From: Eledone cirrhosa | Lineage: Eukaryota | Assembly: GCA_964016885.1 (NCBI GenBank) | Contig: OZ024741.1 | Coordinates: 345,464,001-345,528,000 of the forward strand | Reading direction: 5' to 3' | DNA length: 64,000 bases | Position numbers and translations under genes: made by a program | The notes under the pieces: model-generated | What the model saw: only the letters and a program-made list of their open reading frames with translations | What the model was told of the DNA's origin: nothing | The model's database searches: none | Shown here: piece by piece, positions 50,396 to 50,583 of the stretch | How the letters are laid out: each line of letters opens with the position of its first letter | Position numbering within the stretch: the first letter of the stretch is position 1

Positions 50396-50583
50396 TTTAT
50401 TTATTAAAATAACAGTTTAAAGTTTAAGCAAAGAATCGCTGCTTTCACCCTTAACGATTCTTTGCTTAAACTTTAATCTGTTATTTTAATAAATATTTGT
50501 TCTAGGGTTCTTATATATTTGATATATATTTATCCTTATCGAGCCCTCTTTGGATTTTAGTCTTCACATTTATTATTATTACT
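50396..50583. mobile_element. Mini tail-out fold-back of the 6320-9672 PLE 3' end
   Basis: Arms ATTTATTAAAATAACAG..GAATCG / CGATTC..TTTTAATAAATA, then the long tail to ATTATTACT; (TA)n on both sides. Confidence 0.88.

Follow-up and report, generated by a model that had tools for sequence, protein, structure and literature searches.

Re-used 3′ ends of a Hydra-clade Penelope-like element in Eledone cirrhosa and a conserved twin hairpin in its relatives

Insertions at the locus and their two 3′ ends

The window, that is the whole stretch of 64,000 nucleotides that was analysed, was found to contain a 188-bp mini-insertion and a 3.35-kb insertion of one element, termed family A, and insertions of this family were found to sit in (TA)n. 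The coordinates are collected in Table 1. As proposed in the preliminary description, the same two 3′ ends, a short one (S) and a long one (L), were found to be used by both insertions, one on each side, and the distance between S and L, given there as about 90 nt, was measured as 88 nt in both. The arms of the large insertion contained 10 mismatches in 1532 positions. In the mini-insertion, 18 nt of the S-arm were absent from the L-arm and the tail was present only in the L-arm; the mini-insertion is not a simple fold-back, because each arm carries sequence missing from the other. The flanks of the two insertions were found to be unrelated except for TA and their inner junctions were unlike, with overlaps of 2 nt in the mini-insertion and 4 nt in the large one. 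The independence claimed for them was thus borne out, and segmental duplication with common flanks is excluded for this pair because the inner junctions and the unique flanks differ. Copies of family A were found to be 4-9% divergent.

The fragment at 55225-55341, which had been described as ending near the short end, was found to be a copy (55223-55347) that stops about 4 nt before S, and the stretch 22730-22790, described as ending near the long end, was found to contain a piece (22738-22788) that stops about 7 nt before L. The exact ends of both are blurred because of A/T identity with the (TA)n. Directly after the S-ended copy, a short element with terminal inverted repeats (55348-55526) was found inserted at TA, which we take to resemble a MITE of the Tc1/mariner type. 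At S, the TA run of both the large insertion (9673) and the mini-insertion (50396-50397) was found to be preceded by one additional A that is out of phase (...AATAAATA-A-ATAT), which may be due to slippage or to a source allele containing a further AAAT. Within the long non-coding region between the ORF and the hammerhead, two tandem repeats, each about 140 nt in length and 79% alike, were present at 9248-9511 and 6569-6832. At 21605-21814, the 3′ region of family A was found to have an older relative (80%) that contains other sequence where the hammerhead should be.

Table 1. Positions of the arms, tails, motifs and related insertions in the window (+, forward; -, reverse;., no strand assigned)
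Feature	Position	Strand	Remarks
S-arm of mini-insertion	50398..50456	-	inverted 59-nt copy; 3′ end = S (ends ...TTTTAATAAATA)
Extra TT joining mini S-arm to (TA)n	50396-50397		
L-arm of mini-insertion	50455..50583	+	129 nt: 41 nt inside S and 88-nt tail; ends ...TTATTACT = L
Inner inversion junction of mini-insertion	50455..50456	.	2-nt CG overlap common to both arms
88-nt extension of mini-insertion	50496-50583		
(TA)n target tract left of mini-insertion	50274..50395	.	
Shorter TA run right of mini-insertion	~50585-50599		
L-arm of large insertion (5′-truncated Hydra-clade element)	6320..8144	-	1,825 nt; sense 8144 to 6320; ends ...TTATTACT, then (TA)n
Inverted S-arm of large insertion	8141..9672	+	1532 nt; ends ...TTTTAATAAATA; 4-nt junction overlap
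One-sided tail (S to L) of large insertion	6320..6407	-	88 nt
C-terminal ORF part	7323..8144	-	post-thumb linker, CxCX5C, GIY-YIG, CxxC-E-N-CxH; RT domain absent (5′-truncated)
Hammerhead-like motif	6431..6481	-	Hydra layout, core CAGAAGA (U4 to A); mirror copy 9599-9649 (+)
Hairpin box 1, large insertion	6357..6404	-	GCTC-T ... A-TC-GAGC-CC; 3 nt after S; unusually long loop
Hairpin box 1, mini tail	50499..50546	+	3 nt after S
Single 5′-truncated family A copy	55223..55347	+	91% identical; no tail
Exception, L-type end and ORF-internal end	22510..22790	.	inverted ORF piece 22510-22735 joined to 51-nt tail piece 22738-22788
Second exception, Hydra-type copy	32738..33576	+	canonical hammerhead core, box variant; box and end read by eye
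Family B inverted insertion	277..575	.	91-nt one-sided tail; box variant ACTC...GAGT 6 nt after S
Family B, second independent insertion	39150..40389	.	87-nt tail; box 6 nt after S
Family C inverted insertion	34665..34857	.	80-nt tail with box
Family C, second independent insertion, opposite orientation	55979..56149	.	77-81-nt tail with box
Family D inverted insertion	57152..57828	.	100-nt tail; box variant by pattern, missed by model

The hammerhead-like motif of family A was found to follow the layout of the published Hydra table with three stems, its descriptor matching on average 0.02 times per shuffled window, and S and L were located 23 nt and 111 nt, respectively, after stem I. The core contained CAGA, whereas all 59 matches from 79 related loci contained CTGA, and the A at U4 was found in all three window copies that cover the core (6475 on the minus strand, 9605 and ~55270 on the plus strand). 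A core variant at U3-A8 is mentioned in Cervera and de la Pena 2014, and the text of that paper covered here holds no U4 variant. The U4 variant was likewise absent among the X1 variants listed (X1 being a run of public sequencing contigs), both T>A places falling elsewhere. No hammerhead match was found for the family A element in Rfam among the 150 of 230 window matches listed, nor in 9480-9700; the hammerhead fold was 2.1 kcal/mol above the minimum-energy fold, and the free fold of the last 191 nt was no better than shuffles (z 0.18). Judging from these letters, the very abundant family A may spread with a ribozyme that is weak or inactive. An origin of S or L by hammerhead cleavage was rejected, S lying about 28 nt 3′ of the predicted cut. 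Elsewhere, a weak Rfam match to hammerhead HH9 was present at 67-144 (31 bits, E 0.0008, below the gathering score).

The label Naiad-type, which had been given to the family in the preliminary description, had to be replaced, as the endonuclease was found to be C-terminal and Hydra motifs were present. Compared with RT-endonuclease proteins of about 700 aa, the ORF piece corresponded to the C-terminal third (14 matches, 37-45% identity), and it covered residues 461-694 of a 700-aa RT+EN homolog in which the endonuclease comes last. It was found to contain the CxCX5C linker, no CCHH and one C only between the GIY and YIG positions, followed by CxxC and CxH around the conserved E and N, aligned with the homologs. 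The block upstream of the linker (WFNPP...KIFNRNT) agreed with the Hydra rows of the Craig 2021 alignment. The RT-bearing homologs (37-45% identity) contained RWK and either DKT or DKS; the family A copies in the window were without RT. No Pfam family matched the Hydra ORF piece, and one of four window proteins matched GIY-YIG, namely the unrelated ORF at 14616-15062. An exact 22-nt pattern had no match in the metagenome contigs.

The Hydra clade is defined in the text of Craig 2021 (PMC8557442) by a C-terminal GIY-YIG without CCHH, a CxCX5C linker, CxxC/CxH and (TA)n targets, and further marks given there are RWK and DKT motifs, no insertion in the fingers and a canonical hammerhead near the 3′ end. 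Naiad is described in the same text as having an N-terminal GIY-YIG endonuclease with a CX2-5CxxC finger and a CCHH motif, an RT with a CxC domain, a DKA motif and an insertion in the fingers, and no canonical hammerhead (PMC8557442). A Naiad identity was ruled out by the C-terminal endonuclease, the CxCX5C linker and the lack of CCHH, and on its predicted protein we place the family A element in the Hydra clade of C-terminal EN+ Penelope-like elements (PLEs). The features common to family A and the clade as described in PMC8557442 are the endonuclease motifs, WFNPP...KIFNRNT, (TA)n and a hammerhead layout with GAT...TGAA and U at the cleavage position, whereas the A at U4 of the hammerhead core sets family A apart; the text of that paper gives Hydra no tail length, and the tail of family A is 88 nt. 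Hydra-1_Obim was found to contain a different hammerhead and is not the same element (block compared by eye).

Nine inverted insertions with two terminal arms and TA flanks were chosen by eye from the list of inverted self-matches; a tenth candidate (2718-2813) was left out, having no TA flank on the left. A one-sided tail was found in all nine (88, 88, 91, 87, 80, 77, 100, 52 and 40 nt), and the same tail geometry was present in four families with long tails. Neither S+S nor L+L pairs were found among these nine, which were picked by eye (0.5^9 = 0.002). Among ten Hydra-type inverted insertions, seven were found to pair L with S, two paired L with an end inside the ORF and one was too decayed, the inversion at 36558-37258 being too decayed to call. 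The outer end of the ORF piece 22510-22735, overlooked in the preliminary description, was located within the ORF and preceded S by about 1,080 nt, and the copy at 32738-33576 contained an L-type end about 100 nt after stem I and a 54-nt inverted arm that ends inside the ORF. As a general source of second arms, simple fold-back was rejected; the loop-less palindrome 32738-32845 may have formed in this way.

Several further structures were observed around these insertions. A Penelope-type element with inverted arms and a textbook 40-nt one-sided tail was found at 14035-15988, and it is to this element that the Pfam GIY-YIG match belongs. At 13318-13725 there was a small inverted insertion whose two arms each contain a hammerhead core and whose tail measures 52 nt. 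The S-arm of family D contained four tandem 81-nt hammerhead-core copies (57230-57558) and the other arm one. At 16999-18860, a unit of about 470-520 nt was found three times in tandem, and every unit contained a canonical hammerhead (CTGACGA core, minus strand); this array closes in a fold-back at 18653-18706, and a related copy with an inverted piece was present at 49279-49618, the two being possibly a non-autonomous PLE or a retrozyme-like repeat. A broken LINE-like element (29029-32710; gag-like, endonuclease-like and RT-like frames by eye) was interrupted by the Hydra copy at 32738.

Bulged hairpins and the use of the ends

The relatives examined were the best 79 loci of at least 336 confirmed Hydra-like ones, among at least 602 stretches of metagenome sequence; they are not independent lineages. 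Downstream of their hammerheads, a motif termed the box (GCTC-Y...R-UN-GAGC-AC) was found with 54 pattern matches in 8,827 nt, against a mean of 1.1 and a maximum of 6 in shuffles (n=200). Where at least 170 nt of sequence followed the hammerhead (37 copies), two boxes were found in 15 copies, one in 14 and none in eight. The 23 box pairs were found between the hammerhead and the start codon at a spacing of 56-83 nt, followed in 15 of 22 pairs by the ATG of a long ORF 16-40 nt after box 2 (farther in two, none in five).

The pair beside the 2-nt bulge was found to be Watson-Crick in 46 of 49 distinct boxes (27 C-G, 18 U-A and 1 G-C). None of 20,000 permutations reached 46, the next two pairs also beat every permutation, and the model-fitted alignment agreed; relatedness inflates these permutation tests, and C-G and U-A types were both present inside single elements (box 1 vs box 2). 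Other bulge sizes gave at most six pairings for box position 5. The four lower-stem pairs were almost invariant among the relatives and compensated ACTC/GAGT changes were found in families B, C and D of the window; the backing for lower-stem pairing comes from these window variants, because the pairs barely vary in the relatives. The short hairpin is conserved across Hydra elements that are only about 45-50% identical in protein.

The family A box 1 spanned 48 nt, as against 16-38 nt in the relatives, and the tail hairpin was found to fold modestly better than shuffles (z -1.75). A covariance model (R1), built from 38 boxes of metagenome loci only, was run unfiltered over the window and gave nine matches, of which the top five were the tails at 34780, 56023, 6355-6410, 485 and 40303 (E 0.002-0.27), each at S, followed by noise from E 2.7. 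The family A box 1 was the third-best of these, a weak match of 15 bits (E 0.066). The mini tail and family D were missed by R1, and the mini box escaped both pattern and model because of a C-to-T change in GCTC. By pattern, the box was absent from the 40- and 52-nt tails; it is not a universal cause of tails, because these belong to non-Hydra elements.

When copies were aligned to read-through relatives, 10 of 22 alignment ends were found to precede a box by 0-6 nt, shared equally between box 1 and box 2 (five each), and close relatives (L053, L054 and L060 against L055) used both boxes as ends. The 12 ends away from a box comprised six subfamilies diverging after the hammerhead and two inner inversion junctions, followed by a second alignment of the L060 copy and by L020, L027 and L057. 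Of eight ends after which TA-like sequence was judged by eye to follow, seven were at a box. The true junctions may sit a few nt further upstream, because alignments can overrun through TA-like bases, and the tail is possible on either arm, because the inverted 5′ arm of L017 ends at box 2. Published Hydra consensus sequences were found to end 26-43 nt after stem I in 10 of 24 cases, 81-149 nt after it in 11 and elsewhere in three; Hydra-1_Ajap starts 2 nt before box 1. In two loci (L040:2480-2700 and L042:2290-2560), different Hydra elements were found to meet on a single (TA)n tract with their tails facing each other, and each of them stopped after box 1 and its spacer.

Public sequencing contigs were placed on 6312-6860, with 19,723 contigs in run X1 and 1, 1 and 16 in runs X4, X6 and X7, too few for endpoints. 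The top X1 loose end among those listed was 6407, which is S (144 contigs, (TA)n consensus, agreement 0.58), followed by ends with 38, 36, 14, 13 and 13 contigs; none of the six listed was inside the tail, and 341 X1 contigs overran the ends of the stretch, both ends summed. The backing of L by X1 is indirect, because the queried stretch started 8 nt into the TA run and gave no loose-end score there. Summed X1 depth was higher just inside S than in the tail; depth is no copy number and was not counted as evidence. Opposite-strand joints in X1 varied in position and were not counted for pairing, arm direction not being given. Both arms of the large insertion were found to carry G6567 and A6618, sites at which T made up 99.9% of the X1 depth, pointing to one source for the two arms; conversion between the arms is another possible cause. 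In run X7, the point at which the older relative at 21605-21814 diverges recurred as a loose end at 6513.

Readings of the two endpoints

The ends had been ascribed in the preliminary description to two fixed AT-rich priming sites downstream of the hammerhead, one per target strand. Two fixed AT-rich ends, usually one per side, were found 3′ of the hammerhead-like motif; the strict pairing did not stand, L being joined to an ORF-internal end in two of the ten insertions. AT-richness is probably not what fixes the sites, the adjacent hairpin being the better candidate.

We consider it rather likely, taken as a whole, that the RT-endonuclease binds each hairpin of a read-through RNA and primes one target strand from each. 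Reverse transcription would begin internally, at S and at L, on a tandem RNA produced by read-through, and the inserts would be 5′-truncated inverted insertions of a Hydra-clade element into (TA)n. Each bulged hairpin (GCTC-Y / R-UN-GAGC-AC) would be bound by the RT-endonuclease, the cDNA would start a few nt 5′ of the hairpin, and base pairing of 1-4 nt to the nicked (TA)n primer would decide the exact start base. Box 1 would serve for priming on one strand of the target (giving S) and box 2 for priming on the other (giving L), after which the two cDNAs would stop at variable points and be joined end to end with little or no microhomology. An inverted repeat would result whose one-sided tail is as long as the boxes are apart. 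Use of S for one target strand and L for the other within one molecule is plausible, and use of both boxes in one event is inferred. The endpoints were observed directly, together with the clade, the hairpins with their compensatory pair and the adjacency of ends and boxes in relatives. Box 1 alone was observed in the window; that L adjoins a putative box 2 in family A is an extrapolation from the relatives, because this box 2 lies outside the window.

A narrower form, advanced tentatively, is programmed twin priming, where one RNA with two protein-binding bulged hairpins would engage two RT-endonuclease protomers, each priming one (TA)n strand at the base directly 5′ of its own hairpin; the binding and this stoichiometry are both putative. 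If this holds, the hairpin spacing would be a ruler for tail length, every inverted insertion would be one RNA copied twice, and a duplicated RNA signal would explain the PLE tail together with the inverted pseudo-LTR.

Alternatively, S and L may be cut sites: the endonuclease would recognise the region of the box, in RNA or in DNA form, and would shorten an initially longer cDNA or intermediate there. The adjacency of ends and boxes is equally compatible with cutting, the tail is ascribed to endonuclease-mediated resolution in the text of Craig 2021 (PMC8557442), and the D. virilis endonuclease required the tail for recognition, as cited in the text of Frangieh 2024 (PMC11167929). We nevertheless regard cutting as unlikely, since the tail ends of the anole element are RT start sites mapped in vitro (PMC11167929, text portions seen) and variable-length loops with compensatory pairs suit an RNA hairpin better than a DNA site.

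Little different in standing, and also doubtful, is the proposal that the strands are primed by two separate RNPs, each of which brings its own RNA and selects S or L without regard to the other, the L+S combination being a tendency or a sampling effect. The lack of S+S and L+L pairs among the nine chosen insertions and the rare alleles common to both arms speak against it, even though it would explain an arm overlap of 1,532 nt on the same template without strand displacement, two window copies do not pair L with S, and no strand difference in start site is reported in vitro in the text of PMC11167929.

Quite improbable is the possibility that the ends are RNA 3′ ends, formed by termination or processing at two AT-rich points and used in end-primed TPRT, the hairpins serving translation or transcription of the downstream ORF. 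S and L are AT-rich, the boxes precede the ATG by 16-40 nt, which is where elements of translational control are located, and RNA-seq read ends occur at the same sites in the text of Frangieh 2024 (PMC11167929); such RNA ends would not by themselves place the ends 0-6 nt from a box at both boxes, and internal initiation is shown directly for the anole element in the same text (PMC11167929).

An origin of the copies from one locus by segmental duplication, or an assembly artefact, is scarcely credible: palindromes beside microsatellites are hard to assemble, but flanks, arm lengths and junctions differ, the copies diverge by 4-9%, the same geometry recurs in four window families and 144 X1 contigs have a loose end at S.

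Comparison with known systems

During L1 twin priming, both target strands prime cDNA, which gives an inversion with short junction microhomology; the position of the second priming site varies, and each arm is copied from a different part of the RNA. Family A is unlike L1 in that its second site is fixed and its arms overlap. The copy at 22510-22790 fits the L1 pattern.

On the origin of the one-sided tail and inverted ends of PLEs, one in vitro study shows two internal start sites and leaves aside what positions them. A box beside each endpoint opens simple experiments on where cDNA starts. It can also serve as a marker when Hydra elements and the small non-coding elements derived from them are annotated, and it accounts, for curators, for the two distances from the hammerhead at which consensus sequences stop. 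Telomerase RT also uses RNA structure to fix the copying site. The RTs of PLEs are its closest relatives according to the text of Craig 2021 (PMC8557442).

The words 'hairpin' and 'stem-loop' were found to occur zero times in the main and supplementary text of Craig 2021 (PMC8557442), although boxes are visible in its consensus sequences, and the supplementary text of Frangieh 2024 contained none of the terms searched. Neither twin hairpins nor a long tail in Hydra elements were found described in the literature searched, which consisted of the running text of mainly open papers. The conserved twin RNA hairpin tied to both ends therefore appears new relative to that literature, whereas the two-end tail itself is known.

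The two-end geometry is the published PLE tail, akin to the two reverse-transcription start sites of Frangieh 2024. The PLE tail is described in the portions of PMC3846280 and PMC8557442 consulted as a 30-40 bp extension on one end only of an inverted insertion; it is 31 bp in Adineta, and self-priming on the antisense template was proposed there for the inversion (Arkhipova et al. 2013, PMC3846280). The inverted 5′-truncated copy and the extension at one end only are common to the inverted pseudo-LTR of PMC3846280 and to family A, the difference being in length, with 30-40 bp in that text against 88 nt in family A and 77-100 nt in three other families.

For the Poseidon element PAc of Anolis, the text of Frangieh 2024 (PMC11167929) reports that RT starts internally at two sites, the stretch that separates these sites being the tail. 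Nicking and extension take place on both strands of the target, the start site being the same for top and bottom strands in vitro, and a protein-binding region lies 3′ of the start sites (PMC11167929). PAc differs from family A in belonging to another clade and in having its sites inside the ORF, in one AC-rich stem-loop; a duplicated conserved hairpin per start site is not described in the text of PMC11167929 and the pairing of sites in one insertion was not examined there. The two systems agree in their AT-rich targets and in having two start sites, putative in family A, that define the tail downstream of a hammerhead (PMC11167929).
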